A DNA stretch of 63,752 nt, counting the filler, from Reclinomonas americana ATCC 50394 (lineage: Eukaryota), in assembly GCA_048213135.1 (NCBI GenBank). It is 13 parts of 7 records of this genome, joined end to end, with 100 filler letters (N's around TTAATTAATTAA, not from the genome) between each part and the next. Parts side by side here need not be neighbours in the genome. Positions count along the whole stretch, not along the records: positions 1 to 4,187 come from PS015801.1; positions 4,288 to 9,471 come from PS015801.1; positions 9,572 to 18,753 come from PS015802.1; positions 18,854 to 26,756 come from PS015802.1; positions 26,857 to 28,972 come from PS015803.1; positions 29,073 to 32,033 come from PS015803.1; positions 32,134 to 37,977 come from PS015804.1; positions 38,078 to 42,946 come from PS015804.1; 5 more parts are not named here. The stretch is one strand, 5' to 3'. Shown in pieces: positions 78 through 59,368 of this stretch. The notes below the pieces were generated by a model. The model saw only the letters and a program-made list of their open reading frames with translations. It was not told the origin of the DNA and did not search any database. How positions within the stretch are numbered: the first letter of the stretch is position 1; each line of letters opens with the position of its first letter. The translations under genes were made by a program, and so were the position numbers.

Positions 78-1654
78 ATGTTCCTGCTTCTGTCGAGAGC
101 ATCGTCGCTTTCGTCGCGTTTTGGTGCGGTTTCGTCGCGTTTTGGTGCTGCTTTGGTCGCCGCCACGAGAGGCTTCGCAGTGGCGGCGACTGATGCGAAG
201 ACGAACAGCAGTGATGTTTCGTACACTGAGCGATCACTGGTCTCCCGTGTCTCTCTCTCTCATTCACTGACAACATGCACTGTCTTCTCACTCATTCTCA
301 CACTCTTTTCAAACACAGCGTTTGCTTCACTGATTGCAATCAGTCGTTCTTTAATCACTCATCGTTCTTCACCCTTCCTTCCGCACGCACTGTTTGGCAC
401 TCACCCCTGCACTGTTGCACTCATCCTATATCCCTTCCCCTCACTCCCTTCCAACTCTTTCACACAGTCTTCAATCTCAGCACTGTTTGCAATCACTCGG
501 CCTTTACTCTTTGCACTGTTGCCCTCATCCATTCCTTCCACTGTCAAACGCAGCCTTCATTCTCTGCAATCATCGTTCCGACGCTTTCAAATAGTCTTCA
601 CTCACCACATTTCTTCCATCCCCGTTCCCTTCCACTCACTGACTCACTCACTCGTTCAAACGCAGCCTTTGCTCTTTGCACTGGTGCCCTCATCCATTCC
701 TTCATTTGTTTGCCTACTCCCTTCCACTCATTCACTCTTTCAAACACAGTCTTCAGTCTCCCAATCTCCCAACTTTATGCAGTCATCCTTTCCCTTCCAC
801 TCACTCACTCCCTCGTTCAAACGCAGCCTTTGCTCTTTGCACTGGTGCCCTCATCCATTCTTCATTTGTTTGCCTACTCCCGTCCACTCATTCACTCTTT
901 CAAACACAGTCTTCAATCTCCCAATCTCCCTTCTTTATGCAGTCATCCTTTCCCTTCCGCTCACTCACCATGTCAAACACAGCCTTTACTCGTTGCACTG
1001 TTGCCCGCATCCATTCCTTCCACTGTCAAATACAGCCTTCACTCTCTCCACTGTTTCACTCACTCCCTTCCACTCACTCACTCTTTCCCTTTCCCTTCTT
1101 CCCTTTCCCTTCCCCCCTTTCCCCCTTCATCCCCCTCCCAGGCCACCCCCCGTCGCGCCATCAACATTGGCGACTACGCCGAGCTGCGCCGCACATACAC
1201 CGAGGAGGACCTCGTGCGCTTCGCCGACCTGTCGCTGGACACCAACCCGGCGCACTTCGACGACGAGTTTGCGCGACAGCTGATGCCCGCGGCGCCGTTC
1301 AAGAGTCGCCTCGTGCACGGCGTGCTCACTCTGTCGCTGGTGTCGGGCGTGCTGGGGAGGTGCTTGCCCGGCGCCGGCGCGATTCTCATGAACATGGACA
1401 TCAAGTTCTCGCGACCCGTCTACCTGAATGAGCAGGTGGTGGCGCGCGCCGAGGTCGCCAGCATTCGCGACGATAAGAAGCTGGTGACCATGGCGGTGTC
1501 GGCACGCAATCCGCAGTCGGAGGTGGTGCTGTCGGGCACCGTCCTCGTCAAGTATCTGTGGTTGCATGAGGCGGTGCCGCCAGTGGCCGCGTCGACGGAG
1601 CTCGGCAGCAGCGCGCAGCAGCGTTCTGACCCGGCCATCAAGTGGGAGAAGTAG
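78..1654 (+). CDS. MaoC-like hot-dog-fold dehydratase (HTD2 / (R)-enoyl-CoA hydratase-like) with probable mitochondrial targeting peptide; 2 exons (78-215, 1142-1654)
   Basis: Exon 2 has FADLSLDTNPAHFD and LVHGVLTLSLVSGVLG, the MaoC hydratase motifs. Exon 1 is an Arg/Ser/Ala-rich N-terminus. The intron GAT|GTTTCGT...CCCAG|GCC keeps frame. Confidence 0.85.
440..1060. repeat. Degenerate ~165-bp tandem repeat inside the MaoC intron
   Basis: The block tcgttcaaacgcagcctttgctctttgcactggtgccctcatccattc recurs at ~653 and ~814, with weaker copies at ~500-560 and ~970-1040. Confidence 0.8.
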
Positions 1655-1802
1655 CAGGCCCAGATAAGTGAGTGGGTGAATACGTAAAAAAAAAACGGCG
1701 CAGCCTCAACAAGTACAATGCGGGTGGTTGGAGGGTGGAGAATGGTAAAGAAAGGGAAAGCAGTTGCAGTGTGAAAGGAAAAGAGAGGTGGGAAAGTGGT
1801 TT

Positions 1803-3885
1803 TTAGCGGCTGCCGCTGGCGCCGGCGACCTGCACCTGGTTGCGCTCGCACAGCATCCTGAGCAGTGGGGGAAGGGGTGAGAGAATGATTGGGAACAAAG
1901 AGAGGTGTGAGGGAGAGGCGACGCAACAGTGTGGCGATGAAGCACACAATCATCTTGGTGTTGACCTGTCAGACGCAAACGAATGTAAGAAACGAGAACA
2001 GGAAAGGTGTTTGCCATTGCCGCGACTCACCTCCACCAAGTCCTCCCACCTGCAAGATGCATAGTCGGTGAGCAATTCGATCAAGAAACAGGAGGAGCAG
2101 AAAAGCTACGAGGCCAAGAACAAGCACCGGTACTGTTTCCCTCGTAAACACTCGCTGTTGCTTGCTTTCTCTCTCCGAGCACTCACTCACTCCCTCTTTC
2201 TCTCTCCCACTCACTCCCTCATTCTCTGCGCACGAATGAGTGCATGGTCAAGAACCACGACAAAGGTCTTCTCCGCCTTGACGCGGCCAATCGGTGCATC
2301 CTCACTCTTTCTCTCTGTCTCGGACTTTGTCGAGAACCTTAAAGAGCTTCTACGATCTGCTTGTAGAAGCAGTCATTCTGTGTCTCAGCTTGTTCTCCAT
2401 CTCTCTTGTGCACTCACGCGCGTCAAGTCTGGCGGAGTTCTGAGCCTCTCGATCCAAAGCGCACACTGCGAGATGGAGTGGAGGCCACACAACAGCCTTT
2501 CCATTTTTCTCTTCCCGCCCTCCCTCTCCCTCTCCCTCTCTCTCTCTTTCCTCTTCCTCTCCCTCTCCTTCGCCCTCTCCCTCTCCCTCTCCCTCTCCCT
2601 CTCCCTCTCCCTCTCCCTCTCCCTCTCCCTCTCCCTCTCCCTCTCCCTCTCCCTCTCCTTCCCTCTCCCTCTTCACTCCCAAACGCAACAGGCAGAAAAG
2701 CGTGCCACCAATGGCACGAGCCACCGACAAGGCGTACTTGGCGTTGAGCTCCTTCTCCTCGGCTGTCCCTCCAGATGAGTCACGAGAAAAAATTACAGAA
2801 ACTCCTATTCCTCCAATCACGCACCACTGACACCCGGAGTCACCATGTCGTAATTGACGACACCTGGCCGCACGGCATTACACAGATCGAGAAGGAAGGC
2901 GCCGGTGGAGATGGTCGGGTCGTTGGTGTCGCTGATCGACGACGACTTGCCGGAGGCGGCGACCTTGTTGTTGGCCCACGCCACCAGCTCCTTGTCGGTG
3001 ATGTCGCGACCGCCTTGCGACAACTTGCGAATGGTGGCCACCAAGTTGTAGCGCATCATTTGCCATATCAGAGCTGAAGCAACGATGAACGACAACCACA
3101 AGGGTAGTATCAACAGAGCAGCAGATCCAGCTTACCGAGAATGAGCTTCTTGTTCTTCTGCACAATGTCAGTGCCGTCGATGCCGACCAACGAGAACTTG
3201 TGCTGATGACCAATGGCCACAACGTAGTTGCAGTTCTCGCCTTTTTGGTACACGTTTCGCGGGTTCATCTTGGCCTTCTTCCAGTCCACACAGCCAGCGT
3301 CAATCACATCCCAGGTCTGCCGAAAAAACAAAGTGGAATGATTGAAAAAGATAAGCACAGGCAACGCGGCAAGAGAACGACGCGCACCTGCAGCAGCGCA
3401 ATGCCATCGTTGACGTCCTCGAACAGGTTGTTGACGTCGACGCCCAAACTGCGCAGCCAGAAGCGGAAGGCTACAGAGGCGGCAAGGTGAGCAACATTGT
3501 GCACGACATCGCACTCCCCTCCGCATCTGCCACTCACCGCGCTCCTCACGCGTGCCCTCCTCGTCGAACGCCATCAGCGCATTGACGCCCTGCTTCTCGG
3601 CGTCGCTCAGCTTCGCCATCGCACCGTCGGTCTTGTTGAAGAGATCGGCGATGAACGCAAGGTTGAGGCGACCGAAACCCTGTTGGTGAGGGAGCGTGAT
3701 GAGCTTTGGCCATGCACTGCCGCTGCATACTCGAACGCAACTCCCAAAATCGACTGCGGGCTGATGAACTTGGAGCAGTGGACCTTCTCGCTCTCAATGT
3801 CCACGGACTTGGCGCGCTCCTCCAACGACGGGTCGCTGAGGATGTCCAGCGATGTGCGGCCGCCGGTGGCGATGTGCAGGAGGTG
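1803..3885 (-). CDS. Fimbrin/plastin, C-terminal calponin-homology domains; 5' part not resolved (assembly gap)
   Basis: Spliced translation gives PQSILG-GFGRLNLAFIADLF, EGTREERAFRFWLRSLG, ENCNYVVAIG, LILALIWQMMRY, EEKELNAKYALSVARAIG and LWEDLVEVNTKMIVCFIATLM, matching the fimbrin actin-binding domains. Stop TAA at 1803-1805. Confidence 0.93.
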
Positions 3886-4131: not shown

Positions 4132-4168
<37 letters not shown>

Positions 4169-4289: not shown

Positions 4290-20233
<15,944 letters not shown>

Positions 20234-20258
20234 CTGAAGAGAAGAGGGAAGAGTGAGC

Positions 20259-20329
<71 letters not shown>

Positions 20330-20955
20330 NNNNNNNNNNNNNNNNNNNNNNNNNNNNNNNNNNNNNNNNNNNNNNNNNNNNNNNNNNNNNNNNNNNNNNN
20401 NNNNNNNNNNNNNNNNNNNNNNNNNNNNNNNNNNNNNNNNNNNNNNNNNNNNNNNNNNNNNNNNNNNNNNNNNNNNNNNNNNNNNNNNNNNNNNNNNNNN
20501 NNNNNNNNNNNNNNNNNNNNNNNNNNNNNNNNNNNNNNNNNNNNNNNNNNNNNNNNNNNNNNNNNNNNNNNNNNNNNNNNNNNNNNNNNNNNNNNNNNNN
20601 NNNNNNNNNNNNNNNNNNNNNNNNNNNTGTGTGCGTCGATTGGTGATGCGCAAGAGAGTGCAGTGAGAGAGTGAGTGAGGAGAGTGAGCAGTCTGGCGCG
20701 CGCAGGCAGAGTGGGTGTGTGCGCGCGCGAGTGAGTCACTGTGACTGTGCGACTGACGTGTATCAGCACGCACGTCTCTCTTCTCTCGCTCTCTCTTTGC
20801 CTCACAACGTTTATATTGCACACAAATTGGTATCTCGAAATGGCAGTCAGGTGCATCTCTCTCAACTTTTCACTCCGTACGGTGCGCTCTGTACACCATC
20901 CAAGGAAACGAAGAGAAAAAGTGACGCACACGAGTGGGTTACTCGGCGTGGATGT

Positions 20956-32441: not shown

Positions 32442-32761
32442 ATGAGCATTCTTGAGGACGATGTTGTGTTCTGGTCGCAACGCTCTGCGCCGACCAAGTT
32501 CAAGACGCATCGATTGGACTTGCATCCGGTCAAGCCGTGGGTGCTCTCGGCCGACATGAGCGACACGGTGCATTTGTTTGATTATAAGTTGCGGAGGCGG
32601 GCATGGGGAAAAGGGGAGGGAAAGGGGAGGAAAAGGGGAGGGAATGGGGAGGGAAAGGGGGATGGGAATGGTGATGGGAAAGGGGATGGGAATGGTGATG
32701 GGGGAAGAGAGCGAGACTGAGGGAGGATGGCCAAGCAGCGATGCATAGTGCTGCTTTCTTG

Positions 32762-32823
<62 letters not shown>

Positions 32824-33751: not shown

Positions 33752-33799
<48 letters not shown>

Positions 33800-36700: not shown

Positions 36701-39700
36701 TTGACTTCGTTTGTCTATTGCATTGGCTTTCTTTCTCGTTCATCTCTTCATCTCTTCTTCCCCTCCGTGTCTCCGTCTCTCCCGCGCTTTCTTTTTCTCT
36801 CCTCTTTTGTTTCTCTTCTGCTTTTCTCTGTCTCATCCCGCTCCTTATTCCCTTTCTCGCTTCCCTTCACTTCCATATGCTTCTTCTGTTGCTTCCTTCT
36901 CCCTCGTTTCCTCTCTCCCTCCTCTCTCCCTCTTCTCTCCCTCTTTTCTCCATATCCCTCTCCTCCCCTCTCCTCCCCTCTCCTTTCCTCTCCTACCCTC
37001 TCTTCCCCTCCCCTCTTCTATCATCTCCCTCTCCTCCCTTCTCCTCCCTCACCTCCCGTCTCCTCCCTCACCTCCCTTCTCCCCCTCCCACTGCAGTGTG
37101 CGCGCCAATCAAAACCGCACCGTCCGCATGGAGACAGCGCCCGTTCGCTCGCTCACCAGCAAGGGCACTGTGCGCCTCACCATGAGCCCGTCATTCAAGT
37201 TGCGTGCTCGTGCCCCCGACTCTTTGAGCGATTTGTGTTTTCTGACAGCATGTGCAGGTACCTTGCCGTCGTCTACGAGGATGCCAGGAGATACCAGATT
37301 CTGTCAGTGGGCACAAAGAGCAAGGATGTTGCGCGTCCTCCTCGCTGTGTCTACAACCTCTACGTTCCTTTGTCTCTCTCTGACGTGCACTTGCAGGTGA
37401 TCCAAGATGGTCAAGCTTTCCAGGTCGAATGGTGCTCTGTGGAAGACCGCTTCGCCGTGTTTAACACTGGTGAGTCGAGGGAGAGCGCGTGCATCCCCCC
37501 ACTTCTCTTCACCAATTCCCTCCGTTTCCGCAGATTTCCGCGACCGCTCCTCCATCTCTGTGCACGTGATCGACGACGCGACGAACAAGTTGCGTCGACT
37601 GCAGAGTGCGCTCGTCTCCCCATCTGCCCACTCAATTGCGTCGCAGTGTGCGCACGGCCATTCCGCAATACGCGACACCTCTGGCGGGCGGTCGCATCTT
37701 TGGCGGTCCTTTTATTGGCATCTCCTACATTTACCACGAGGCGGCCACTCGTGCAGGCTACTTCCAGTTTTATTCGTGGAGTGCCGAGCAGACCATGGGA
37801 GGGTAAGCAGGTGTGCCGAGTCAATGTGAATTGCTGTTTTCCATTGACGCTGTGTTGTTGCTGTTGTTGCTACTGCGCAGCACACTTCCGCGGCCGATTG
37901 ATGTGTTCTGGGACAAGAGCCACGCACTCTGTGTGCTGACTTTTGTCGACGAGTTCTGCGTGTTTGCGATGAAGTTGNNNNNNNNNNNNNNNNNNNNNNN
38001 NNNNNNNNNNNNNNNNNNNNNTTAATTAATTAANNNNNNNNNNNNNNNNNNNNNNNNNNNNNNNNNNNNNNNNNNNNAGTTCGGGGTTTGCTTGTTTTGT
38101 TGTTATCGGTGTGCTTACTCACACACCGTCGTGCGCTGCAGGCCGGCCATGACGCTCATTTCGCGCGTCCCCGGCTTTGTCAAGTCCGGAATGTGGTTCA
38201 ATCGCACATTCTTCTTCGCCACCGACGAGGAGATTCGCTGCCGTTGCGTGATGTCTCAACTCGTAGTTGGCCATCTGTCCAGCCGCTAAACTCTCTGTGC
38301 GCCTTTTGTAGTCTTCCCGCACCCCTCTCACATGGAGGTCATTACGTTGGCCTCGTTGAACGTGAGTGCCTCCAATCAGTTCCGCGCCTCGCAGCAGGGC
38401 AATCTACAGGATCCGGCCACGTTGCGTCTCGTCTTTGGTCCGCCCATCCCAGATCGACGTCTCCTCTCTCACACCCGCTCCCCACAGACCTTCACAGGCC
38501 AACACGCACATTTCCTCGCGCCCGGCGGGTCTCGTCTCCATTGTGGATGTGTTTGACGGAGTTGCGTTGTGCTCCCTATCGCCCACGTGTGCATCCTGTG
38601 TTGTCTGATTGTGTGCGTGGTTGATGTCAGTTCCTGTGCATTGCCGACGCTTACCACAACATTTTCTTCATTCCACTGGATGACATGGCTCTCAAGTTCC
38701 GCATCTTGGTCAACGCCGGTCACATTGATGCGGCGCTGCACTGGTGCGTTGAGTGTGTTGCTTGTCGAGCGAGTGTCTTCTTGTGGCTCACTGACTCTGT
38801 TTGTGTTGTCTGTTCATTCTCTCCCCCTTGTGCATTCCCCCTTTTGCTTTCCCCCTTTTGCTTTCCCCCTTCTGCTTTCCCCCTTGTGCTTTCCCCCATT
38901 GCTTTCCCCCCTTGTGCTTTCCCCGGTGCTCCCCTCCCCTCTCTCCGTNNNNNNNNNNNNNNNNNNNNNNNNNNNNNNNNNNNNNNNNNNNNNNNNNNNN
39001 NNNNNNNNNNNNNNNNNNNNNNNNNNNNNNNNNNNNNNNNNNNNNNNNNNNNNNNNNNNNNNNNNNNNNNNNNNNNNNNNNNNNNNNNNNNNNNNNNNNN
39101 NNNNNNNNNNNNNNNNNNNNNNNNNNNNNNNNNNNNNNNNNNNNNNNNNNNNNNNNNNNNNNNNNNNNNNNNNNNNNNNNNNNNNNNNNNNNNNNNNNNN
39201 NNNNNNNNNNNNNNNNNNNNNNNNNNNNNNNNNNNNNNNNNNNNNNNNNNNNNNNNNNNNNNNNNNNNNNNNNNNNNNNNNNNNNNNNNNNNNNNNNNNN
39301 NNNNNNNNNNNNNNNNNNNNNNNNNNNNNNNNNNNNNNNNNNNNNNNNNNNNNNNNNNNNNNNNNNNNNNNNNNNNNNNNNNNNNNNNNNNNNNNNNNNN
39401 NNNNNNNNNNNNNNNNNNNNNNNNNNNNNNNNNNNNNNNNNNNNNNNNNNNNNNNNNNNNNNNNNNNNNNNNNNNNNNNNNNNNNNNNNNNNNNNNNNNN
39501 NNNNNNNNNNNNNNNNNNNNNNNNNNNNNNNNNNNNNNNNNNNNNNNNNNNNNNNNNNNNNNNNNNNNNNNNNNNNNNNNNNNNNNNNNNNNNNNNNNNN
39601 NNNNNNNNNNNNNNNNNNNNNNNNNNNNNNNNNNNNNNNNNNNNNNNNNNNNNNNNNNNNNNNNNNNNNNNNNNNNNNNNNNNNNNNNNNNNNNNNNNNN

Positions 39701-42409
39701 NNNNNNNNNNNNNNNNNNNNNNNNNNNNNNNNNNNNNNNNNNNNNNNNNNNNNNNNNNNNNNNNNNNNNNNNNNNNNNNNNNNNNNNNNNNNNNNNNNNN
39801 NNNNNNNNNNNNNNNNNNNNNNNNNNNNNNNNNNNNNCCCCTTTTTCCCCGTTTCGTTCCCCTTTCCCCCTTCTCCTTCCCCTTTCCCCTTGTCGTTCCC
39901 CTTACCCCTTAGTCGTTCCCCTTTTCCCCGTTGTCGTCCCGTTCCCGGTCGTCCCCTCCCCCTCCCCCCCCCCCCCCCCCTTGCTTCCCCCGTTGCTTTC
40001 TCTCTTGTGCTTCCCCTTTGCTTTCTTCCTTCTCTTCCCCCTCGCTCCTTCCCCCTTCTCTTCCCTCTTCGCTTCCCCTTTGCTCTCTCCCTGTCCGCGT
40101 TCCTCTTCTTCTTCCCTTTGCTCTCCCCTTCTCCTCCCCCTTCCTTTTTCCCCCTCCCCCCTTCTCCTTCCCCTTTCCCCTTCCCCTTTCCCCTTCCCCC
40201 TTCCCTTCTCCGCCCTACCGCAGGTTGCCCCTCATCCACCAAAAGCACTACACTCGACTGGCGGACTTTTTGCAATCTCGAGGCTTCCCGCAGCGCGCTG
40301 TGCGGTTGCGCAATGTGCCCACTGCCCGCAAGGTGAGCAGCGCAATGCTTTCTCGTTTTTCACCCACCACGGTCTCTTGTTTCTCACCCGCTGTTGCAGA
40401 TTGAGATATGCCTCAACCACAAGCTCTTCAACGAGCTATTCGATGTGCTGCTGGTGGCCGAGGATGAGCTGAATGAGTGGCAGAAGAAACCACAGATTGA
40501 GGGTGTGTGTCGCACACGTGCTCTAATTGCTTGCCCTTCTTCTTTCCGCAATTATTGATAGCATGTCCGCTACAGGTCACAAGCTGCTCTTTGGGCGCAC
40601 ATATGCTCACTGTGGTGCGCTGGCCGAGGAGGAGCAGAACCACGATGCTGTCATTCGTGCATACGAGGAGGCTGGTCGATTCATTCCGCGGTACGTCCCG
40701 ACTGTGTGTCTCCTCTCACTGCCCATGTGGCTGCCTCATTTTCTCCTTCGCCTGCTCAGCGCGTACCGCCACTTGATTGTGTACCTCGCTCGCGGTGGCT
40801 ACACGGACGAGTTGAACGAGCTGGCCACCAAGTTGGCGCAAGAGTTTCGCCGCACCGCCTTTCCTGCCTGATTCGTCGCCAATTCACCATCGTCGCTGAC
40901 TACACACATTCGTTACAGTGAGCTCTTTGAGGAGGCGGCACTGGCGTCGTCGCTGCTCGGCAACTCGGCACTCACCAAGTCGCACTCGGTCAATGCGCAC
41001 AATTACGCTCACGCTGCTCTGCTGTCGCTCTCACGGTGAGCGCCTTGCTGTCGTTTCTCGTGCACGCACGCGACCTGCGCCCTTCTCACCTCATGTCCGT
41101 GTGTTTTTTTTTCAGCAACGAGGAGACGGCAACATTGGTGAAGCAGTGGGCACAGTATCTGGGCGACAAATTCCCCGACTTTGCGCGCGTGGAAATGGAT
41201 GCCACAGTCAACGTGCCCATTCCTGCTTTCCGCGAGCGACGTGCAGCTGCGCCCGCCGCTTCGTCATCGTCCTCCACCACGACCACTGGCGATGGCGCCG
41301 CCAGTGCGTCGGGTGTCACCGATGACAGTGTGCCGGCACCGTACGCGGGCGACAAGCCGGTGGTGGTGGTGCCGACGATTGGTGTCTCCGGCCCTGATGC
41401 CTCACCACAGCGTCCCAACTCGGGATCATCGTCGCCGCGCATTCAGGGTCGCGGATCCGTGGTGTTTGACAGTTGAGTGTGTGTGTATGTCAAAGAGTTC
41501 CTCTCTGCAGTCCCTCACACCCCGCCGACGCAGTCGAGCAAGGCTCGGATATCAACGCCCCCAAAATCCCCGGCGCACTCTCTGGTGGCTCTTCGCGACG
41601 GTCGGGCTCCACTCGTGCGGCAGGCGTACGCTCTCGCAGCTCCACGCTGCTGGTGTCGAACAATGGTGGCTCACAGGCCTCGTCGACTCGTGGTACGTTC
41701 TACTCACGTGACTTCTTGGTGTGCTGGCCCTTCACGCTGACCTCGCACTTTCCCGACTCCATCAGCTGCCGGCAAGGGAACCGGTACTGGTTCCCTGGAG
41801 ACCGGCTCTCTGTCGTCCCTTAACAGCCCGCCAAACACCAACACGTCGACCGGCGCCAAGGATGGTGGATCAGGTTACGTACCAACATTTTTAATGTCGC
41901 GCCTGTCTTCCGCATATCAGCCATCTCACTCTGCCTCTCGGTCGCAGAATCCCTGGGCAGCGCCAACGCCAACCCGGCGCCCATGTCGGCGCCAACACTG
42001 ACAGTGGACGCGCTCGCCGTCAGCACCATTTCTGCGGCGACTGCACCGGCCGCCGGAGCCAGCACAATGAGCTCGTCTGCATCGACACGAAAGAGGAGCA
42101 CCAGCTTTAGTTGCGCATCACGCCAGTGCTTGTCTCACTCTCAGTCACCTCTCTCACCACACCGGTGTGATCGCAGTGGGTACACGGCGACCGGCACGAC
42201 CACGATCGACGACCATTGGCAGTGACCGAGATTTGGTGCCCGGACAAGCCGGCGGTGCGGCTCCTGCTGGCGCTGCCGACGGCGAGCCGAAGCCTGCCGA
42301 CATGCCTGAAGACTACGTTCCCCCGCCTCTGGTCGGCTCCAATCGCGCACCTTCGCCGACAGACACGGCCGACACGGTGTCGGAGCCCGAGTTTGACACG
42401 GAGTTGTGA
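32442..42409 (+). CDS. TTRAY2: Large WD40/alpha-solenoid coat protein, TSET/TPLATE complex TTRAY subunit (plant TWD40-2-like)
   Basis: LDLHPVKPWVLSADMSDTVHLFDY, GHIKEVRLYDKDVVYWK, ENRLLIVDVDTL, LAIGGSDGVVRLYD, GHSGAV, LLTAGVDGRIMFW and HYTRLADFLQSRGF follow, in order, the motifs I recall from plant TWD40-2. More than 25 exons join in frame. Crosses three N-gaps. Subunit number is from memory. Confidence 0.7.
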
Positions 42410-42476: not shown

Positions 42477-45400
42477 CTACAAAACCATGTCGTCGTCGAG
42501 CGCCATGTGCTCGCTCCTGGCCTCCTCCTGCGCAGACGCCTTGCTCGCATCGGCGGCCGGCGCGAGCTCCCGAGCGAACGAGATACGGCGAACGACATAG
42601 GTCAGGATGTAGGCCGGCTGTGCCAGCACCGATTCTTCGTGAACCAGTTTCACATCGGCATCGTCGCACAAGATCCACTGGCCAGCGTGCCGCACGTACG
42701 CCAAATAGTGTCCGCGCTCCATGCTGCCCTTGTGCACCACCACACCTTGCAAATCGTACAGCAGCGGGCCGGTATACACGCTGCCAGTCAGCGGCTGTGA
42801 CAGCAATGAAAACAGAACGCGATGAGAAGAGGAGAGTACAAGTAGAATCGTCGCTGCTTGTGTCCAACGCACCTTGCCATCGGCATCGTCGCGCACGAGG
42901 AACGGGCTCATGTCGAGGCCATACATCGGAAACTCAATGTGGTCGTNNNNNNNNNNNNNNNNNNNNNNNNNNNNNNNNNNNNNNNNNNNNTTAATTAATT
43001 AANNNNNNNNNNNNNNNNNNNNNNNNNNNNNNNNNNNNNNNNNNNNGGGGGGGAGGTAAACAAGCTGAGGGTGGGGGGGAAGGAGAGGCGACAAACAGTG
43101 AAGTGAATGAGTAAGAGTGCGAGAGAGTTGAAAGAAGGAATACTCCTGAACTGCGAGTGAAGGGAAGAAGAACGAAACGATGTAACTGACTGCACAGTGA
43201 GTCCGAGATGAGTGAACAGAAGTGAGAAGGGAAGGGAAAGGGAGGGGGGAAGGGAACGGTAAACAAGCCGAGGTGAGGGGAAGGAGAGGCGGAGCAATGT
43301 GACAAATAGCAAGTGAGTGAATGAAAGAAATATTCACGAACTGAGAGTGGAGAGAAGAGGAATGAAACAATGTGACTGCACAGTGAGAGCGAAGGAGAGA
43401 AAGAGGGATGAGTGAACAGTAGTGAGAAGAGAAGGGAAAGGGAGGGCGGAAGGAGAGGGTGAACAAGCTGAGGTAGGGGGAAGGAGAGGCGACAAACAGC
43501 GAAGAGAATGAGTGAGAGTTGAAAAAGAATATTCACAAACTGAGAGTGAAGAGAGAGGAACTAAACAACGTGACAGACTGCACAGTGAGAGCGAGAGAGA
43601 AAGAGGGATGAGAGAATAGCAGTGAAAATAAGCTGAGACTGACGGTGACGAGCTGCTGTTGCGGCCCGTCACTCACCTCCGAAATCAATTCATCAATGGC
43701 ACACCCGAGGCAGCCGCCATCAAAGCCCTTGCCGCGTGGACAGCGCTCTCCACGTGGGTGATGATCGCACAGGAAGAAGTTGCGCACAGGCGGGCAGTGC
43801 GCCAGCACTTGCAGGATGGAATTCATGAAGCACGTGTTGCCCATGTTGTACAAGCCGCGCAGACCCAAGTCCGGGCACCTGGACGAGGCACAAGTAGGGT
43901 GAGCGTGCGGCGAAGGTCGCTGGGCAGACATGGAAGGGTTCCCACAAGTCAAGGACGCAACAGTTCACCACCACCCGCCGTCGCGTCGCTTGGCATCGAC
44001 CTGCCCTGCAACATACTGAGCGATCCCAAATCAGTGGCATAAGCTCGTCCTCCCACGCCAATCGTCTCCAACAACCGCTCTAACGAGGCCGGCGCGCTAA
44101 TAACTTTTCTCCTCTTCCGCTCGTGCTCCTCGTCTTCCGCATGCGCACTGCTGTCGGTGTTGGCAGCTGCTGCTGCGGCTGTTGTTGTTGTCGTCGTGGT
44201 TGTGGAGGTAGAGTTGTCGCGGGGTCGCTTCACTCCCGCTTCCCGACTCGTGCGCATCGCCTCCACCGATGCGTGATACTTGTGGTCACCGCACGTGGCA
44301 CAAAAGACTTCGCGGCAAGCCAAGTCGAGAGCTAAGACGAGCACCCTAGCTGTGAGACAACTTGCACAACTGCGCAGCATGCACGTCTCCCCCCGTACAC
44401 ACCTAATGAGTGATCCTGTGCATGCGCGTGTTCGACACAGTGGGCACGGCATGCTACGAAAGCGCATGAGAGGCAAGCGAACAGACGCGGAGGGATGCTG
44501 TGGTGGTACAAGGAGTGTAAAACGGCACGATTAGACAACAAGACAATGAATGCCTTGCAAAGCTCTCTCCGAAGATGGCATGCCTCTCCCTCTCCCTCTC
44601 TCCCTCTCTCTCGCTAACACTCTGCTTTGTAACACTTCAAGTTTNNNNNNNNNNNNNNNNNNNNNNNNNNNNNNNNNNNNNNNNNNNNNNNNNNNNNNNN
44701 NNNNNNNNNNNNNNNNNNNNNNNNNNNNNNNNNNNNNNNNNNNNNNNNNNNNNNNNNNNNNNNNNNNNNNNNNNNNNNNNNNNNNNNNNNNNNNNNNNNN
44801 NNNNNNNNNNNNNNNNNNNNNNNNNNNNNNNNNNNNNNNNNNNNNNNNNNNNNNNNNNNNNNNNNNNNNNNNNNNNNNNNNNNNNNNNNNNNNNNNNNNN
44901 NNNNNNNNNNNNNNNNNNNNNNNNNNNNNNNNNNNNNNNNNNNNNNNNNNNNNNNNNNNNNNNNNNNNNNNNNNNNNNNNNNNNNNNNNNNNNNNNNNNN
45001 NNNNNNNNNNNNNNNNNNNNNNNNNNNNNNNNNNNNNNNNNNNNNNNNNNNNNNNNNNNNNNNNNNNNNNNNNNNNNNNNNNNNNNNNNNNNNNNNNNNN
45101 NNNNNNNNNNNNNNNNNNNNNNNNNNNNNNNNNNNNNNNNNNNNNNNNNNNNNNNNNNNNNNNNNNNNNNNNNNNNNNNNNNNNNNNNNNNNNNNNNNNN
45201 NNNNNNNNNNNNNNNNNNNNNNNNNNNNNNNNNNNNNNNNNNNNNNNNNNNNNNNNNNNNNNNNNNNNNNNNNNNNNNNNNNNNNNNNNNNNNNNNNNNN
45301 NNNNNNNNNNNNNNNNNNNNNNNNNNNNNNNNNNNNNNNNNNNNNNNNNNNNNNNNNNNNNNNNNNNNNNNNNNNNNNNNNNNNNNNNNNNNNNNNNNNN

Positions 45401-47251: not shown

Positions 47252-47619
47252 GAATGAGTGCGAATGCAATGTCCTCTTGTTCAATATATTGTGTGGTATC
47301 GACGTTCGCACGCCACGAACGACTTTATGTGCCTGCCTCACGCAAGTAGTACTGTGGAGGTCGGGCTTCAGAAACGGCGTCTTTTTGTTGAGACTCGGAA
47401 CACTGATTCGAGTCAAAACGATCGACGTCGAAGCAGTCTCTCGCTGCGTGTGTCGTGCTGCCCCTGGCTCTCAGCAACGCACCTATCTCACGTGCCCCGC
47501 GGCACGAAGAAGTCACACACAATCCCCTCCCCACAATCATAATGGCCATCGCCTTGTACAGATAAACTCCACCTCGCCACAGCCTAGCGTCATCTTCCCA
47601 CGCTCACTGTATCGTCGCA

Positions 47620-50600
47620 TCACGACTCCTCCACGTGCGACTGCGACCGCTTGCATCCTTTGGCGTTGATGTCGGTCGAACCGCAGCACTCCCACGTAAA
47701 TGTCTGCGTGACGGTCGTGAGCAACACACCGCTCCCTCCTCCAGCTCGTATATGCGACAGACCGCCTGCACGCAGAAGTAAGTCTGGCGCGAACGACACA
47801 TGCAGTCGACAATAACACACGCAACTTTTCCGCGTGCCAACTGTCCTCAGCGGCGAAGAGTAAGCACACACGGAACAAACACCAGAAAGCATTAGGAAGC
47901 GGCGACTGACCTCTTGTTCCAACTGCACAGGGAGGGAGATAAAACGGTGAGCAATCACGAAGCACCAAGAGCGATGAACGGAACACGCGACTCACAAACT
48001 GTGCACCAGAAACCGCACCACCGCCAATGAAGAAAGCAGTGAGGAAGGAAGGCGCGCGTAGACAGTAGCACATCGCAAACTGCCAAAAACTCACCGCCTG
48101 TGAACACACTTTGTGAGTGAGAATCGAATACAGACACCAACAGCACGAGTTCCATGCAGACGAACCCGCTGTTCCATGGACAGTCGCACAAGCGATTCGA
48201 TCACAAGGTGAGCTCTGTTTGCACGGACACGGCGCATGGGGGAGATGCAGCGTACAAACCATCTGCCACACCAAATGAGTACAGATGGGTGTTGAAGGAC
48301 GAGAGGGAGTGACACGCACCACAGAAAACTGTTGTCGCCGTGCCACCAGAGGGCAAGAAAGTTAGCAATCGAGACAGAGCTACGAACGCATGTTACAAGG
48401 CCTTCGACGCACCGCCTGTACACACGATTAGAGGTGCGACGTGACGCAGCAAGAGCACACGATAATAAGAGTCACGCAACAGTCTGGAGGTAGATGGTGG
48501 GCAAGTGGAGGAATGGCACACAAAGTAAGCACCAACAGCACAAGCGTTCACAGCTACATGCACGCAACAGTCTGTGTGAACAAGCAGAAGTGAGGGTACA
48601 GTAAGAGAGGAGGAGTTCATGCGCACTTTGCACTTACCCCCTGTTCCGATTCGTCACGCGATGCACAAATAGAAAGCAATTTTGTGAGACAACGATGAGA
48701 CGCAATGAATCGTTACCAACGCACTCCCTGCGGTGAGCGCGAGAAGCACACGTCAGAGGCACATCAGCCGACATGTGCATGTACATGCAAGACGCGCCTT
48801 CTGCGTGAGGCAATAGAATCATCAGAAACACGAGCATGCAAACCATTTCACACCCACGTAAGAAACGCAACAGTATCATCCTCCGTGGACTGCCGCCGTG
48901 AGCGAAAACAACAAGACGGTCAACAATTCGTATGAGCTGTAACGCAAGCCAGCATCAACTCACCCACTGTCGTCCGCGGATTGCACACAGTCACAAAAAA
49001 ACTCGTGAGACACACAGTGCCTTTGCGGGGACACACGCCGACTCCCAAGACTCACCACCTGCACGACTCACGAGCAATGAGATCGAGCAAGCGCAAGCTG
49101 CTGGAAACAGCCAAACAAACTCACCCACTGAGTGCCGACAAGTGCAGATTGTGCATGACAAATGGAGTGAGTTGGTGAGAGAGACACAGATTGCAACCTT
49201 CATCGACAACGCACCGTCTGCGTCCGACAGAAGAAATCGATAAACAGCAGACTGTGAGTGACCAGCAAGTCAATGTATCCACGCTGGAATCACGTTACTC
49301 ACCGCCTGTCAACAAGTATATTCACACGATAAGAAACAAGAAAACTCTGAGTCACGCAAACACACGGAGGCAACGTCGACGGACTTACCGCCTGTATGCA
49401 TTCCGAGATGCGACACACACGTGGGTGAGTGAGATGAAGCAATGAATGTGACAATAAGCACTCTAACGCACCCACTACGCGGGAGTAATCAATAGCACGT
49501 GCGCAATAGAAATGAGCCATGGCATTGCATAATGAGAGAGACGACAACGCACCCCCTGCAATGCAGCGAAGGAAATAAGAGCATGTTGGCAACCCAAACA
49601 CGAACAAGAGACTCACCGCAAACGCCTACATGGGTGGCACGCGAGAGCGATGAGAAGGTGTAAGAGAGAGGACGCAAGCAGGTGCTGATGTGAAGCGGAT
49701 GAATCTCACCGACTGCGGATTCAGGAGGGGAAGAGAGAAGCAAAACATGAGGACTTTCAAGATTGACGCCACGGATACTGAACGACGCCACTTACCGTCT
49801 GCACATGATTCCACAGCGCACGCATCGCAACACATGAGTATGGACACGGTTGTGACAACAGAGCTGCTGAACAAAACTCACCAACTGCGCAACGTAATGA
49901 AACAAATGAGAGACGAATGGGAGAGACAACAGGCAAGCAACAATCAGTAAACGCACCCGCTGATACGACAAGCAGACAGGCGAGCAATAAATATGAGCAA
50001 ATGGAGAAATGCAAATCATACGCAGGTCACTCGCAACACTCACCCCCTGCAGTCGAGACGCAAGGCCAGCGCACGCAGAAGGATGAACATGTGAGTCTGT
50101 ATGCAAAGCTAATCGTACTCCGAGAAACACTCACGTCCTGCAATTCAACTGTGAGCATGATGAAGGACTGCATGTGGGTGCAAGGCATTGATTGACACTC
50201 ACCGACTGCGAGAGGTCAGACAAGCAGGCACAACAACGACAATCGAGCAAAGTGTCAGCGTCGCAAGCGGATGGAACGAACGACATGCCCACTCACCAGC
50301 TGCACGCAGCCAGGCAGTGATTGTCGCACAGTGAACAAAAGTGAGTTCCCCAAAGCAGCCCATGCATGAGAGACATTGACAGACCTCCTGCAGACATCAA
50401 AGTGTATCAGGGTGATGCACACTATAATGGCCAAACAAACAGGCACACTCACCCCGTATTCCTGTTGGTTGGCGCCACGGCAAGGAAAAGAACAATGTGA
50501 GCGTAACTACGAGACGAAAGCCAGTCAGCAAGAAATGTCGCCACACACCCACTGCACAGAGAGAGCAAGGCACCATTTCCACATGAGAAACGATGGCTCA

Positions 50601-52300
50601 AAAGCAATGACACACCCACCCCGTCTTACCTCGGTATGATGCATGCATGGTTGCTTCTCCGCGTACAACTCGCCGCATCTCGCACACGTCGGCGGCGGCG
50701 GCTACACAAATAATACTAAGCACATGATACACAACGTTGGTGTTCCCAGCGATTGATGCCGCAACTGGTGCTGCCGTTGGCGTGGCCGTCACCGGTGCCG
50801 CCGCCGCAGGTGGTACGGCGGTCACTGTGCCTGCCGAGGCCAGTCCACCGACAATGGACGCCGCCACAGCGTGTGACGCCAGCGCGCCCTGTGTGTACAT
50901 GGAGGGAGAGAGATTGACGAGAGGGTAAAGAGGGATTGTGATGGAAATCGACAAACCTCAATGGCACGCTGTCCTCGCGCTACTGGAGCACCGCTGCCGA
51001 CACTCAGAGCGGCAATCTGGGTGGAGAAGTGGTCAGGTCCAAGAGAACTGCAGAAAAGGAAGGTGCCTGACTGCAGCGTACCGCTTTCTCACGAAGTTGT
51101 CGCTCATCTTGCAGCGCCTTCTCAAACTGCGCACGGAGGTGTCAGAAGCATACACACAAGATGTGAAGCAAGACATGTCATTCACCTCGCGCCGGAAACG
51201 ATTCATGCGATCCGACAGCTCCATAAACCGCTCCTCCAGCACCCGCCGCTCGGCCTCGTTCTCGTCGGCTCGTCGCATGGCCTGGAGTGGACATCGACAA
51301 TGAATGGACGCATTACACACAAAAATCGGTGCCGACTGTCACACGCTCGCACCTGATTCAATATCTGTACCATCAACAAGAAAAGAGTCAACAGAAAAAT
51401 CAAGGACGAGGTATGTGCGCCAGCAACGCAACGTAGCGAAACGCCGGCTCCGCGTGCACCACATGGCACTCTTGTTCGTGCGCCGGCTTGTCCGCACCAA
51501 GTCCCTCCCACTCGCAGCCAATGTCCCACGCGCGGCACTTTTGCGGTAACCGCGGACACGTCACATCTGCAGCACATGATGAGCTCAACGAGAGCACACC
51601 CCTGATAAGAATGAAACATACCGACGTGCCGCTGAATCTCGCCGCGTGCAAGCAAGGCCCCACAGCCGCGAGAACAGGGGACATCACGGCATTGCGCCTC
51701 GCGGTGTGCGGTCACGAAGCGGAGGGTGCCGGTGGCGCCACAACCCTGCGGGCACACATACATGCACTCGTCCCAGGCGTGGCGATTGTGAAAGTCGCGA
51801 ATGCACTGGACACAAAGGGGCAGGATGTGAGCGATGACGACACGAGCTGCTATCCCTCAACCAAACGTACCAAGCGTTTCTTGCAGCGCCGGCATTCAAT
51901 CTGCCAAATACACAAACATCAGTCTCGTCGTGCCTCCGCGGAAGAGCACACAACCAACCTCGAGATTCTCGTAGTTGCGCGCATTGAAAGCCGCCGGCAT
52001 CTGCACCGAACTGATCGAGGTCAGACTGCCGTCGCCGCACCAGTTGCGCCCCTCCTCCGTCAAATGCGAACTGCAACGAAACACATGAGCGAGGGCCAGA
52101 AGCCAGCACCGTGAAGCCAGAAAAACGAACCGACAGAGAACGTGCTCTCCCGCGGCACAAAAGCACCACTCACGGGAGCACAAGTCCTGCGTGGTGAGGA
52201 TTAGAAACGCATATCAGACCTGCTTCTGTACGTCCGCCAGCCGCTGTCTGCAGATATCGATCTCCGTGTATCTCTTTCATTCTCTCTCTCTCTCCCTTCT

Positions 52301-53272: not shown

Positions 53273-53327
<55 letters not shown>

Positions 53328-53370: not shown

Positions 53371-56300
53371 GTGGATGTGAGCGGGCTCTCTCGGGCAATC
53401 GACTCTGTGGCCGCTGGTCAGGCGTCGGCCGAGTCGCACTTGGCGGCGGCGGAGTCGTCGTCGGGTGCGATTCATGCGGATGAGGCCGCGCATCAGCAGC
53501 GCACGAATGCGTTGGAGCAGGGTGAGTGAGGGAGGGAGAGAAGGAGAGAAAGAGATGGGGGAGACAGACAGAGAGCGAGAGAGAGAGAGAGAGAAAGAAA
53601 GAAAGAAGGGAGGCAATGAGAAGACAGTGGAGTGAGAGAAGGGAGAAATGCAAAGAGAAGAGAAGGGAGAAAGAGCGATGAAAGATTGAGAAATACAGTG
53701 AGAAGACGACAGAGAGAAAGATTGGGGAGACAGACAGAGAGCGAGAGAACGTAATGAGCAATGGAAGACAGAGGGAGACATGCAGTCAGACAAGCAGACA
53801 GAGAGAGAAGACCTGTCGTGCATCACTCGTCTCGGAGAAATCGGAGGTCGTTTCTCACTCTGTCTCTCTTCTCTCTGTGCGTGCGTTCTGTGCCGTTCTC
53901 TCTCGCACTGTGCATGTCTTTCGTCTTCGCTGTGGGGGCGGGTGATGCAGTGCTGCTGGGCGGAGTTTAACGCGTTTCTGTTGGGTTTCCGTGCATGAGC
54001 TTTCTTCAGTCTGTCTGGTGAGATTGCTTATGGTGGTTTTGTTGCTCTTCTGTATCTGCAGGGTCGTCTGCCACTCTGTGCCTTCTTTATTACTTCTCCG
54101 TTTCTGAAATCATTCACTCGTCTGCTATGTTGTGCACTTTATTTGTGTTCCCATGCCTGTCTCGCTGGCAAGCGTTTCGTTTCCGAAAGGCATTTCAGAA
54201 GGCATCAAAACCGCTGGTCTCTCATCTCTTCCTGTATCTATATTGCTCTATTGTCTCAGAAACCGCCCTTTTCCTGCTTATCTTTCTCCTCTCTGCCGAG
54301 TACTCTGGGTCTTCATGGTTAAGAATGCGTTCCTCAAATCTTTGCTCTGCACCACTTGTCTCCACATGTGCCTTTCTGCTTTTGTCTCGTCTGTCTGTTC
54401 TCCTCCCTCTTCTCTTTATTTACCCACTCTGTCCCTTTCCCCGCTCCTCCACAGGCGTCGACTCCACTGCGCAGCACATCAGTGAGCAACTGGCGGCGGC
54501 GCTTGCCGACTGGGAGGCGCAAGTGGCGCGTGCTCGTGAAGAGGCGCTGGCCGGAGCCTCGGGCTCCCCCTCTGTTGGCGTCGGAGATGGGTCGCTGTAC
54601 TGCGTGACGGGCGCCACTGGTTTTGTGGGTGCGTGTGGCTTGTGTCTTTGCCAGTGCACGCGTGCATGTGTTCCATATGCTCACGCGAGAGCTGCACGCA
54701 GCCGGGCACGTGATCAAGCTTGTTCTGCAACGCGGTGACCGAGTGCGAGGTTTGCGTGGCGCACGACGTTTTCTTCCACTTCTTGTCCGCAAATCGATAC
54801 TCACCTCTCACTTCGGCAGGCACCGTTCGCAGCCTGGCCAACGAGGCCCGCCTCGCTCACCTGCGCGCACTGCCGGGTGCCGACGAGCGCCTCGAGTTGG
54901 TGGAGGCTGATTTGCTGGCCGACGGTTGGTCACATGCCCCGCTCGTCTCGCTGATATCGCCACATCTCTCATGTATGTGTGTTGTGCATGTGAGCAGGCA
55001 GCTTTGATGCACCTCTCGACGGCGTTGCGTTTGTTTGTTCCTGTTTCTGAAGGCGTTCGCTGCCCGCTGACAATCCTGTGTTCTGCAGTGTGTTGGCGTG
55101 TACCACGTGGCATCTCCGTTCTTCTACGGCGCCACGGACCCGCAGAAGCAGCTGATTGAGCCCGCTGTGCAGGTTTTACTTGTTGCACAGATTTACCTCT
55201 CCACTCGCCCTCAACCCATCTCTCCCACAGGGAACACTGAATGTGCTGCGCTCCGCTATCAAGTACCCGGCGATCCGACGCGTGGTTCTGACGTCGTCTA
55301 TCGCTGCCATCACGAGTGCGTTGAGCAACAGCTGTGCACCGTACTGCTCATTGGCTGTTGCTCACTCACGTGCGTGTCGCAGACATGCAACCGTATCACA
55401 CGGAGGCCGACTGGAACACCAAGTCGACACTGGAGTCCTCGCCGTTTCGTAACTTATGCCATCATTCTCGATACTCTCTATCTGCACAAATTGTACTCTT
55501 CGATGATTGTGGGCTCACGCGTTCTGTTTTTGGATTATCACCCTCTCTCTTCTTGTTTGTTTATCACGTCGCCATCGCAATATCGTGCACTCTTCCGATC
55601 TTTGTGGCCACACCTTCAGACTTCTTATTCGTCTGATTGCATGCGCATTTCATTCCTTTTGTCACGCGCTGTGTGCTGGTCGTCGCGTGATCTTCCCATC
55701 TTTGTGGCCTTCGCACATCATTCTTGCATTTTTGATTTCTAGATCTCCCCTCTTCGCCATCATTTTGTTCCATCATCCTCCCCCTTCGCCCTCCCCCCTC
55801 TCACTCCTTTCCCTTTTCCCGTCCAGCTACGCCCTGAGCAAGCGCATGGCCGAGGAAGCCGCATGGAAATTCATGGAGGAGAACAAGCCGAGTTTTGTCC
55901 TCTCCGTCAACAACCCATCGATGATTATTGGCCCCGTGATGAGGTGCGTCCTTCTTCCCTGCCCTCCTCCTCCTCCTCCTCCTCCTTCACCGCGTCGCTC
56001 ACGGCTCCATCAGCGACGACACGAGCGTCGTCAACACCTCCTCGACTATGCTGCTGGCCTACCTCAAGGGCGACCATCCGCGCATCAAGAGCGCCTACAT
56101 GTCATATGTCGACGTGCGTGACGTGGCCCTGGCACACGTGCTGGCCATGCACCACGAGCCGGCCAGTGAGATTGCCTCGCGCTTCATTTGCACCATGGGC
56201 CCGCCGCTCACCGACCAAGAGCTGGTGGCGACCGCTCATGAGAGTTTCCCGCAGTTTGCACTGCCCACCGAGGTGGTGGACCAGGTGCGTTCAAGCATGC

Positions 56301-57559: not shown

Positions 57560-57844
57560 GAAAGAGAGAGGTCTATCGTCTCAATAGTGGCGGGAGTTGA
57601 CGGGAGTGAACACGAAAGCTCTGCCGCAGAGAGACAGAGAGAGAAAGAGAGAGAGAATACAGAGACGACGTGAGAGGGAGAGGGAGGTCTCGTCAAAGAG
57701 TGCGGGACTCGGCACAGAGTGGAGAGAAGGAACACAAAAAGCTTTGCCCTGAGCGAGCGAATACAGCGACGACATGAGTGGAAGAGAGTGTCTATCGTCG
57801 CAAGAGTGGTGTGAGTTGACGGGAGTGAACACGAAAGCTCTGCC

Positions 57845-57886
<42 letters not shown>

Positions 57887-57900
57887 CGCCGACGAGAGTG
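57560..57900. repeat. Direct duplication (~240-bp spacing) in an IFT57 intron
   Basis: gagttgacgggagtgaacacgaaagctctgccgcagagaga occurs at ~57594 and ~57813. Confidence 0.7.
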
Positions 57901-58269
57901 GGAGAGGGAGCTCTCATGTCAAATTGCGGGAGGTGGCGAGAATGCACGAAAGACACCACCGCAGTCGAGGAATACGACAACGAGAGAGGAAGAGACAGGA
58001 CTCGTGCCAGAATTGCGGGAGACGGCAAGAATGAATACACGAAAGCACTGCTGCGACAGTGGCAACAACGCCGAATAGTGGTCGGTGAAAGCACATGGAA
58101 GAGTGATGAGAATGCATGTGAAACCCGTCGAGGCGCACAACAGCAAACAGACTCAGAAGACATAAGCAACTTAACAGAGTAGTGGCAGGATAACAAGAGC
58201 AAAGTTAGCAGCACGACAGAGAAGAAGGAACAGGGGTGGTTGCACAAGACTACAGTGACGCATGCCACC

Positions 58270-59368
58270 CTCCCTTCTCCTCCACGTTACCTCTCGGAAG
58301 TTCTTGATCTGATCAATGTGCGCCCGCCAGTCCTTGGGGTCGAGTGCCACACGCAGCGTCAGCTGCGGTACCGCGTGCTCCAACTCCAATTGCCAGCCCT
58401 CAGCGGTCATTCCGGCAATACCGGCGGCGCCAGCGGGTACGGACGACGCACCAGCACCGGTTCCCGACGGCCCTACGCCACTGCCGTCCCCTGCACCGCC
58501 AATGCCCATCACTTTTGCCGCGCCCGCTCCCTTTTTCTTGTTGGCTCCCACGCCCGAACTGCTGGCACCGCCACCGCTGACGCCGCCCACATAGTAACTC
58601 ATGTCCTCGCCGTCGTCGGAGCTGCTCTCCACATCGTCAGCGATCTCGTTGCCGTATTGCCCGTCGGCCGAGTCCTCCACCTCATCCTCGGGCGCCACCT
58701 CGTCCTCGGCAATCGGATCGTCCTCCGGGTGCGGGTAGATCGGGCTCTCGAACGGAATGGGGATCTTGCGGAAGATGAGGTCGCACAGGTTGTTCAGCAC
58801 GGCGCACACCTCCGGTCCGTTGCCGTTGCGCATTTTTTGGTTGGGGAAGTCGGGTGACCAGCCGATTTCGCGGAGCTCGTTGTCTGGGCAGGGGGGGAGG
58901 GTGAGAAGGGGGAATCAGGGCAAAGGAGGACAGGAGGAAAGAGTTGCGTGTGCATAAGCTATCCGAGCTTGTCGACATTCCAAGACGAAGCAACTCTGAG
59001 ATTGGCGTGATGTGGCAATCCCCATTCCTCGATCCCTCCCCTCTCCCACTTCCACGCCCATGTACGCAACAGATTCGAGCGCACACGTCGCTCGCAGTCT
59101 CCAACTGATCGGGCAAGTCATACGGTCGCTCCGCCAGCTGGAAGAGCCACGCTGTCAGCGTGGCAAAGTGTGAAAATTGCTCCTGCGGTTTGGGCGACGG
59201 CATGGCAAAGTAGGTGCGCGCAAACGCCTTGATGCCACTGTGCACAGTCGCGCGTGAGTGACAGAGAGAGAGAGAGAAGATGGAGAAGGAGAGTGTGGTA
59301 CGCAACAATCGCTTGCAGAATTCCTGCTCGTAGCCGAGGATCTTGAGCTTCTCCAGCACGAGCTCCAT
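58270..59368 (-). CDS. IFT57: Intraflagellar transport protein 57 (partial; probable first exon near 59900-59963, 3' exons lost in gaps)
   Basis: MELVLEKLKILGYEQEFC, RTYFAMPSPKPQEQFSHFATLTAWL, DFPNQKMRNGNGPEVCAVLNNLCD and WQLELEHAVPQL..DPKDWRAHIDQ. Confidence 0.92.

Follow-up and report, generated by a model that had tools for sequence, protein, structure and literature searches.

A variant U1 small nuclear RNA complementary, in a register shifted by one base, to an abundant class of 5′ splice sites in Reclinomonas americana

The window analyzed here, i.e. the whole stretch of DNA under study, comprises 63,752 nucleotides (nt), filler included, joined from 13 parts of 7 records of the genome of Reclinomonas americana ATCC 50394 (assembly GCA_048213135.1). 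Besides ordinary 5′ splice sites (donors) of the types G|GTGCGT and G|GTGAGT, its introns include many whose donor carries the conserved G at position +6 instead of +5, e.g. GTTGCGT. An earlier note on the window had listed 31 such shifted donors. We describe this donor class and a variant U1 small nuclear RNA (snRNA) gene, present beside the canonical one, that probably accounts for it.

Genes and shifted donors of the window

Shifted donors were located in the following features (positions count along the window).

210 to 222, plus strand: shifted donor GTTTCGT at 216 (gene model only)
1802 to 3885, minus strand: 3′ part of a fimbrin-like gene (CH domain, homologue P0001), with shifted donors at 3741, 2689, and 1927 beside ordinary donors at 3537, 3387, 3135, 2824, and 2030
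3735 to 3741, minus strand: fimbrin shifted donor GTTGCGT of a 62-nt intron, phase 0 (alignment to P0001 ungapped on both sides)
2683 to 2689, minus strand: fimbrin shifted donor GTTGCGT of a 640-nt intron, phase 2 (ungapped against P0001; the ab initio model picks a nearer acceptor)
6226 to 21706, minus strand: large gene with 61 modeled exons and about 3,100 residues (gene model only); 14 shifted donors listed, at 7272, 8721, 9138, 11975, 13042, 13216, 14348, 15520, 16716, 17546, 18042, 18547, 19032, and 19472 (gene model)
32445 to 42409, plus strand: WD40-repeat gene (gene model, weak WD40 match); shifted donors at 32588, 34428, 34732, 36693, 37199, 37328, 37589, 38243, 38421, 38561, 40844, 41472, 41874, and 42110 (gene model)
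43879 to 43961, minus strand: 83-nt intron of a USP-like gene, with shifted donor GTTGCGT (sequence, gene model)
47623 to 52000, minus strand: micro-exon gene with shifted donors at 47825, 48480, 48568, 48871, 50765, and 51432 (gene model)
55024 to 55826, plus strand: DFR-like gene with two shifted introns, donors GTTGCGT at 55024 and GTTTCGT at 55444 (gene model only)
58884 to 59306, minus strand: gene called IFT57 by the earlier note, with two shifted introns, donors at 59306 and 59070 (gene model only)

All 31 sites listed previously start with GTT-N-N-G, and none of them is preceded by an exonic G. Two of them, 32588 and 50765, read GTTGCGG and depart at +7 from the full donor pattern proposed earlier. 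Conserved fimbrin sequence had been said to fix some of these junctions, and it does so for 3741 and 2689, both of which align without gaps to P0001 when cut at GT. These are the sole window junctions fixed by a homologue, fimbrin site 1927 lying outside the P0001 alignment. Together with two donors of the micro-exon gene discussed below they stand apart from the remaining window sites, which were placed by the gene model.

The modeled protein of the large gene at 6226 to 21706 contains repeated beta-propeller-like and membrane segments. The WD40-repeat gene may be TSET/TPLATE TWD40-like; homologue retrieval for it returned one unrelated-looking WD40 protein and nothing useful. On the minus strand, the region 47600 to 50500 holds about 28 successive micro-exons, 25 of them of 3 nt, with normal short introns between.

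Junction sets and gene models

The assembly amounts to 108 Mb in 16,441 contigs, and many loci are present twice, as haplotypes. The genome is intron-rich (median modeled intron length 70 nt) and dynein heavy chains are numerous in it. Junctions were placed without an assumed motif in 10 dynein heavy-chain loci, located on contigs other than those of the window, by spliced alignment to a 44-sequence profile; a GT or GC donor and an AG acceptor were required, and nothing else. This yielded 260 junctions, 221 of them with eight ungapped codons on both sides. Filters on score and margin retained 155 high-confidence junctions, in the following called homology-fixed, and dropped 105.

A gene finder with two alternative donor models complemented this set. 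With the first, whose knowledge of donors was limited to GT, it was applied to 54 genome stretches and the window. The second, referred to as the gene model, distinguishes two donor classes; it was trained on shifted sites, with the 155 homology-fixed junctions as part of the training, and its counts are therefore partly circular and favor shifted sites. Of the 155 homology-fixed junctions, all of them seen in training, it returned 145.

Share and composition of the shifted donors

Among the homology-fixed junctions, 22 of 155 were shifted (21 GTTGCGT and one GTTGCGC) and 133 ordinary; the ungapped set contained 33 shifted junctions in 221. With the GT-only gene finder, GTTGCGT was the commonest donor heptamer (68 of 662) and the rule defining the class fitted 110 of the 662 donors; 12 of the 31 listed window sites were recovered. 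The gene model assigned 251 of 1041 introns overall, and 45 of 178 in the window, to the shifted class, and recovered all 31 listed sites. Counted on both strands, GTTGCGT occurs 32 times in the window, compared with 10.6 ± 2.9 times in 60 dinucleotide shuffles (maximum 20). Shifted donors are thus confirmed as a real, genome-wide class of introns, with a share of about 14–25%. The class is a major one, as the earlier note had claimed, but its figure of a quarter or more of resolved introns marks the upper end of this range.

Of the three variants named for the class, GTTGCGT dominates (151 of 251 modeled donors), while GTTTCGT (26) and GTTGAGT (10) are minor. The modeled shifted donors have U at +2 in 100%, C at +5 in 89% (A in 6%), G at +4 in 83% (A in 1%), and A at −1 in 45%. 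Their consensus from +4 to +7 is a copy of the +3 to +6 consensus of ordinary donors, for which the 133 homology-fixed cases have G at +5 in 93%. The observation that the exon's last base is rarely G in this class was borne out by the homology-fixed donors: G occupies −1 in 2 of 22 shifted as against 123 of 133 ordinary donors. Viewed from the exon, 20 of 30 donors following a base other than G were shifted, compared with 2 of 125 following G.

In intron length, 3′ end, and branch motif the two classes are similar (gene model). The branch motif CTVAY was present in 199 of the 251 shifted introns; among ordinary introns it was found in 529 of 790. All 22 homology-fixed shifted introns end in YAG and 245 of the 251 modeled ones in CAG or TAG; as AG was imposed by both programs, these counts show merely that such ends fit. 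With GT and AG ends and a loose branch motif near the 3′ end, shifted introns have the features of U2-type introns. They lack those of U12-type introns, since the donor reads GTTGCG and not RTATCCTT, and the branch sequence CCTTRAY occurs in 2 of 251.

Position of the cut

Several observations place the cut at GT. Moving the donor by one codon, including a cut at the GC at +4, incurred an insertion or deletion in 22 of 22 shifted dynein cases. Sliding both intron ends by +1, which creates a UU donor, gave a worse alignment in 10, an equal one in two, and a better one in one of the 13 informative cases; the other 9 of 22 are blind to this reading because the next exon begins with G. In Prp8, two GTTGCG donors lie beside tiny exons, and cutting at GT leaves exactly 13 residues between those corresponding to human 1453 and 1467. 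The resulting peptide is present in 95 of 102 motif-bearing homologues (120 examined), compared with no homologue for the slid readings, or one at one position. In the window, only a cut at GT gives two ACT micro-exons, each followed by a shifted donor, the 3-nt length of their neighbors. The class hence combines a consensus displaced by +1 with a cut at GU, which is one mark of shifted-register 5′ splice sites.

Two types of U1 snRNA

The earlier note had suggested a search for U1 genes with an altered 5′ end, and such a gene exists. A model search together with a pattern for the shared stem-loop SL4 identified three U1 genes in the genome, belonging to two types. One gene, on contig C343, has the canonical tip. 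The variant type lies at C429:9347-9500, with an allele at C479:4310-4463; the two are identical across 201 nt and have the 5′ end AUACGUAACUU. In both types the free 5′ arm is 11 nt long and helix H starts at position 12. The arm of the variant differs from the canonical pairing arm by substitutions at positions 5, 8, and 11.

Outside the arm the variant has the hallmarks of U1. It keeps the four-stem cloverleaf with a free 5′ arm (z = −2.9), the U1-70K loop, the U1A loop, the Sm site, and SL4. In SL1, four of six pairs are changed on both sides relative to the canonical type (a comparison of two sequences, in which 34 of 500 shuffles scored as high). A CCCACAA element is situated at −66, as at the U2, U5, and U6 genes, and is also found upstream of U4, U11, and U6atac; a 3′-box-like stretch is common to the variant and other snRNA genes. 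The upstream region of the canonical gene on C343 falls into an assembly gap. From these features the variant gene looks functional and is predicted to be expressed. The contigs of both U1 types have a window-like composition and carry both donor classes, which makes an origin from two organisms unlikely. A single metagenome match to the variant tip was discarded as a chance hit, being located inside an apparently bacterial gene and having no Rfam U1 match.

Opposite GUUGCGU in the +1 register, the variant can form the pairs C9-G+1, A8-U+2, A7-U+3, G5-C+5, C4-G+6, and A3-U+7 (U1 position first), with a wobble between the U at position 6 and G+4; its U10 can in addition pair with an exonic A at −1. 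Compared with the canonical arm, the variant mends the two mismatches of the +1 register, at U+2 and C+5, which are the bases that the donors use. Duplex energies, computed as nearest-neighbor values with pseudouridine and proteins left out, favored the variant for 22 of 22 shifted homology-fixed donors (mean −9.4 vs. −0.9 kcal/mol for canonical U1) and canonical U1 for 120 of 133 ordinary ones (mean −6.9 vs. −3.8 kcal/mol for the variant). In the gene-model set, 242 of 251 shifted donors favored the variant and 638 of 789 ordinary donors canonical U1.

U6, the minor spliceosome, and other components

A variant of the U6 ACAGAGA box had also been considered as a possible cause, but the box is canonical in the one U6 type found. 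U6 positions C42 and A41 have no pairing partners in C+5 and G+6, the bases they face in the normal register, but after a shift of one base they can pair with G+6 and U+7. A U6 register of −1 has been reported for human STAT3 (PMC11162779). Tan et al. warn against assuming that a register used by U1 also holds for U6 (PMC4856993), and the registers of U6 are thought to be far less flexible than those of U1 (PMC11162779, PMC4856993).

Orthologues of U1C, Luc7, Prp8, and METTL16 had been suggested as further places to look. One type of each was found; U4, U5, U1-70K, and SNRNP27 were likewise found as one type each. U2 snRNA is present as two diverged types (C14; C409 and C371) with identical branch-pairing and helix I regions. 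All of these counts are lower bounds. The Prp8 gene (C729, L053:1-650) contains an intein-like insert that ends in His-Asn before Cys and has a weak homing-endonuclease match; Prp8 matches extend across plants, animals, fungi, and protists at 86–93%.

A true minor spliceosome is indicated by a canonical U11 gene, a U6atac gene (C392, allele C1225), and U12-type introns (101 pattern matches vs. 6 in the control), nearly all of which start with AT. Searches by model or pattern did not find U12 and U4atac genes, which does not show their absence. Among 100 U12-type matches listed, four were on bacterial-looking contigs. Contigs C1 and C2 (2.3 and 2.05 Mb) look bacterial, with 48% G+C; the samples taken from them contained no gaps and showed no enrichment of donors. 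In U6atac, C14 and G15 come to lie opposite G+6 and C+5. This CC variant of the box is known from Acanthamoeba, Physarum, oomycetes, cnidarians, and moss (PMC2396436). The idea of the box as a co-evolved partner of the shifted class was dropped, given that the variant is widespread and true minor introns exist.

A nested intron in the U1C gene

For U1C (C84, L159:1322-1503; allele C5979, L157), splicing in one step leads to a stop codon. The donor that follows is interrupted behind its first base by an inner intron of 75 nt, whose removal rebuilds the sequence GTTCCGA; with a second splice of 79–81 nt, both alleles regain the His-Asp-Ser-Pro of human U1C. With the inner intron between donor bases 1 and 2, the predicted layout is that of a [D1,2] stwintron as defined in PMC12403724. 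The rebuilt donor has G at +6 and a calculated energy of −3.5 kcal/mol with the variant vs. −1.6 kcal/mol with canonical U1. Because this pairing is weak, feedback control of U1C through a variant-U1 route would be a guess.

Probable donor selection by the variant U1

We consider it probable that shifted introns belong to the ordinary U2-type GT-AG introns and that a second U1 snRNP, containing the variant RNA, selects their donors. The earlier note had offered shifted U1 pairing or a variant U1 or U6 as explanations. The variant U1 is complementary to the donors in the shifted register and stands beside canonical U1, so that the first two are not alternatives to each other; a variant U6 was not found. 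The variant would be expressed and used, as judged from DNA, and would share U1-70K, U1C, and Luc7 with canonical U1. It would select GUUGCG donors one base out of register, with the cut remaining at GU. The next step would fall to the single canonical U6, in the simplest case with a one-base shift as well, through the pairs C42-G+6 and A41-U+7. Canonical U1 presumably leans on the pairing of its C9 with an exonic G and would serve mainly exons ending in G. In the variant, C9 pairs with the first G of the intron, which frees the exon from having to end in G, and a strong donor may thereby follow A, C, or T as the last exonic base.

A single base separates GGTGCGT from GTTGCGT, suggesting that introns could pass easily from one class to the other. 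Positions in paralogues gave no evidence on such a path: of 187 dynein introns, one shifted intron shares the position of an ordinary one. Three others are 1–2 nt from an ordinary intron, in both directions, and are uninformative on intron sliding.

A number of points weigh against donor selection by the variant. At +4, G prevails even though A would form a Watson-Crick pair with the variant; A at −1 is limited to the 45% given above, and −2, +8, and +9 lack clear complementarity. G+6 and U+7 are compatible with canonical U1 as well in the shifted register. For ordinary G|GTGCGT donors the energy with the variant (−5.9 kcal/mol) comes close to that with canonical U1 (−6.5 kcal/mol), so the division of labor between the two U1s may be loose, and the factors left out of these energies call for further caution. 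The variant U1 reached 64.0 bits over its full length (E = 2.8e-14), below the Rfam RF00003 cut-off of 69.5, as did the canonical-tip copy with 63.7 bits. No variant U6 that would account for the register at the catalytic step appeared among the matches obtained by model, BLAST, and pattern, which comprised three identical canonical copies. Finally, haplotypes differed at 5 of 155 sites at +3 to +7 vs. 77 of 1267 sites in the intron interior, suggestive of weak purifying selection on the shifted motif.

A more far-reaching version, which we regard as unlikely, holds that the major spliceosome is split in two. GUUGCG introns would have a separate entry route formed by the variant U1 and perhaps the second U2 type, U6 would be re-registered routinely or the introns handed to the CC-type U6atac in the normal register, and the nested intron, with its weak shifted-type rebuilt donor, would let the route regulate the shared U1C.

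It is more doubtful that canonical U1 alone reads the shifted register, or that U5, U6, or proteins choose the site, with the variant gene silent or incidental. Canonical U1 in that register still forms C9-G+1, A7-U+3, C4-G+6, and A3-U+7, the +4 to +7 consensus does copy that of ordinary donors, and lineages with atypical donors often retain a standard U1 (bioRxiv 10.1101/2022.06.08.495308). The predicted pairing, however, amounts to about −1 kcal/mol. Canonical U1 would moreover predict A at +5, where C is by far the commoner base, and the two fitting changes, conserved fold, and upstream element of the variant would be left unexplained.

Less probable still is a hybrid route in which the variant U1 picks the site and catalysis is performed by U6atac, pairing with C+5 and G+6 in the normal register and sparing the active site a shift. 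The position of G15 and C14 in U6atac suits this proposal, its helix Ia segment could, by eye, pair with U2, and U12 and U4atac were not found. Yet the U6atac box is a known variant that needs no special cause (PMC2396436), the canonical U11 and the true U12-type introns account for U6atac, all but two of the 251 shifted introns are without a U12-type branch, and U7 of the intron would mismatch C13.

That the donors are misplaced, the real cut being G|UUGCGU (a UU donor read by the variant in normal register), the GC at +4, or a G supplied by a nested intron, is very improbable: A8 of the variant would face and pair with U at +1, nine dynein cases are blind to sliding, and U1C provides one nested case, but the reading frame is lost with a UU donor if the AG acceptor stays in place, a slide of both ends calls for an acceptor other than AG at the expense of conserved residues, a cut at the GC adds a residue in each of the 22 cases, and nested introns as a general source are unsupported, with intron-like upstream sequence plus a strong G|GT donor at 4 of 36 candidate sites after YA vs. 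8 of 338 others.

Comparison with known systems

In mammals, donors read by U1 in a shifted (+1) register use canonical U1 and are cut at GU (Roca and Krainer 2009, via PMC4856993, PMC9311317, and PMC11162779), and all non-canonical registers together make up about 1.5% of human sites (PMC11162779). The donors described here resemble them in having the consensus one base into the intron, G at +6, the cut at GU, and a U1 duplex moved by one position; they differ in their share of about 14–25% of introns, in C at +5, and in the matching U1 gene.

Altered U1 5′ ends that fit atypical donors have likewise been described for Mastigamoeba and Entamoeba; the variant reported here shares with Mastigamoeba the substitution to G at U1 position 5 (bioRxiv 10.1101/2022.06.08.495308). 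Each of these two organisms showed one U1 candidate, with changes in the normal register, and this altered U1 takes the place of the standard one, whereas in R. americana canonical U1 is present and the register, given a cut at GT, is +1. In Physarum, standard and modified U1 are said to coexist (bioRxiv 10.1101/2022.06.08.495308), as they do here, but there too the modified forms pair in the normal register. Unlike in all three organisms, the two U1 types of R. americana fit two discrete donor classes with different registers, tied to the last base of the exon.

Further parallels can be drawn to (i) the minor (U12-type) spliceosome, in which a U1-like reader of its own likewise serves a second class of donors, interspersed with ordinary introns within the same genes; here, in contrast, branch, 3′ end, and length are U2-type, the reader is a U1 paralogue and not U11, and a true minor system is present as well; (ii) human variant U1 snRNAs, which are likewise encoded by paralogous U1 genes with altered sequence, although the descriptions in the accessible passages of PMC3561869 and PMC10870369 contain no abundant donor class matched to one variant; and (iii) the donor classes set by LUC7, also two classes of 5′ splice sites within the major spliceosome, which depend on protein paralogues acting on one U1 RNA (PMC11842720), whereas a single type of Luc7 was found in R. 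americana, where the classes divide according to the RNA. The accessible text of PMC8329584 contained nothing on hybrid spliceosomes.

We found no description of such a donor class or of such a U1 in the open-access literature, a coverage that leaves out most subscription papers and bioRxiv supplements; the U1 variants of Physarum are said to have been described elsewhere. The 5′ tip of U1 is among the most conserved RNA sequences of eukaryotes, and the natural U1 changes reported to our knowledge match donors in the normal register. In R. americana, which also has a canonical U1, a natural U1 shows compensating changes for a shifted register and fits introns in the thousands. For practical purposes, gene finders trained on a single donor class will misplace shifted junctions. 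The system also permits large-scale tests of how the cut is positioned by a canonical U6 and by Prp8 if the conserved G is at +6. If our reading is correct, the variant would be a U1 paralogue that serves a class of substrates of its own, as has long been suspected of variant U1s, and it would account for exons being able to do without a final G. It suggests that R. americana may use two parallel codes for finding the starts of its introns.

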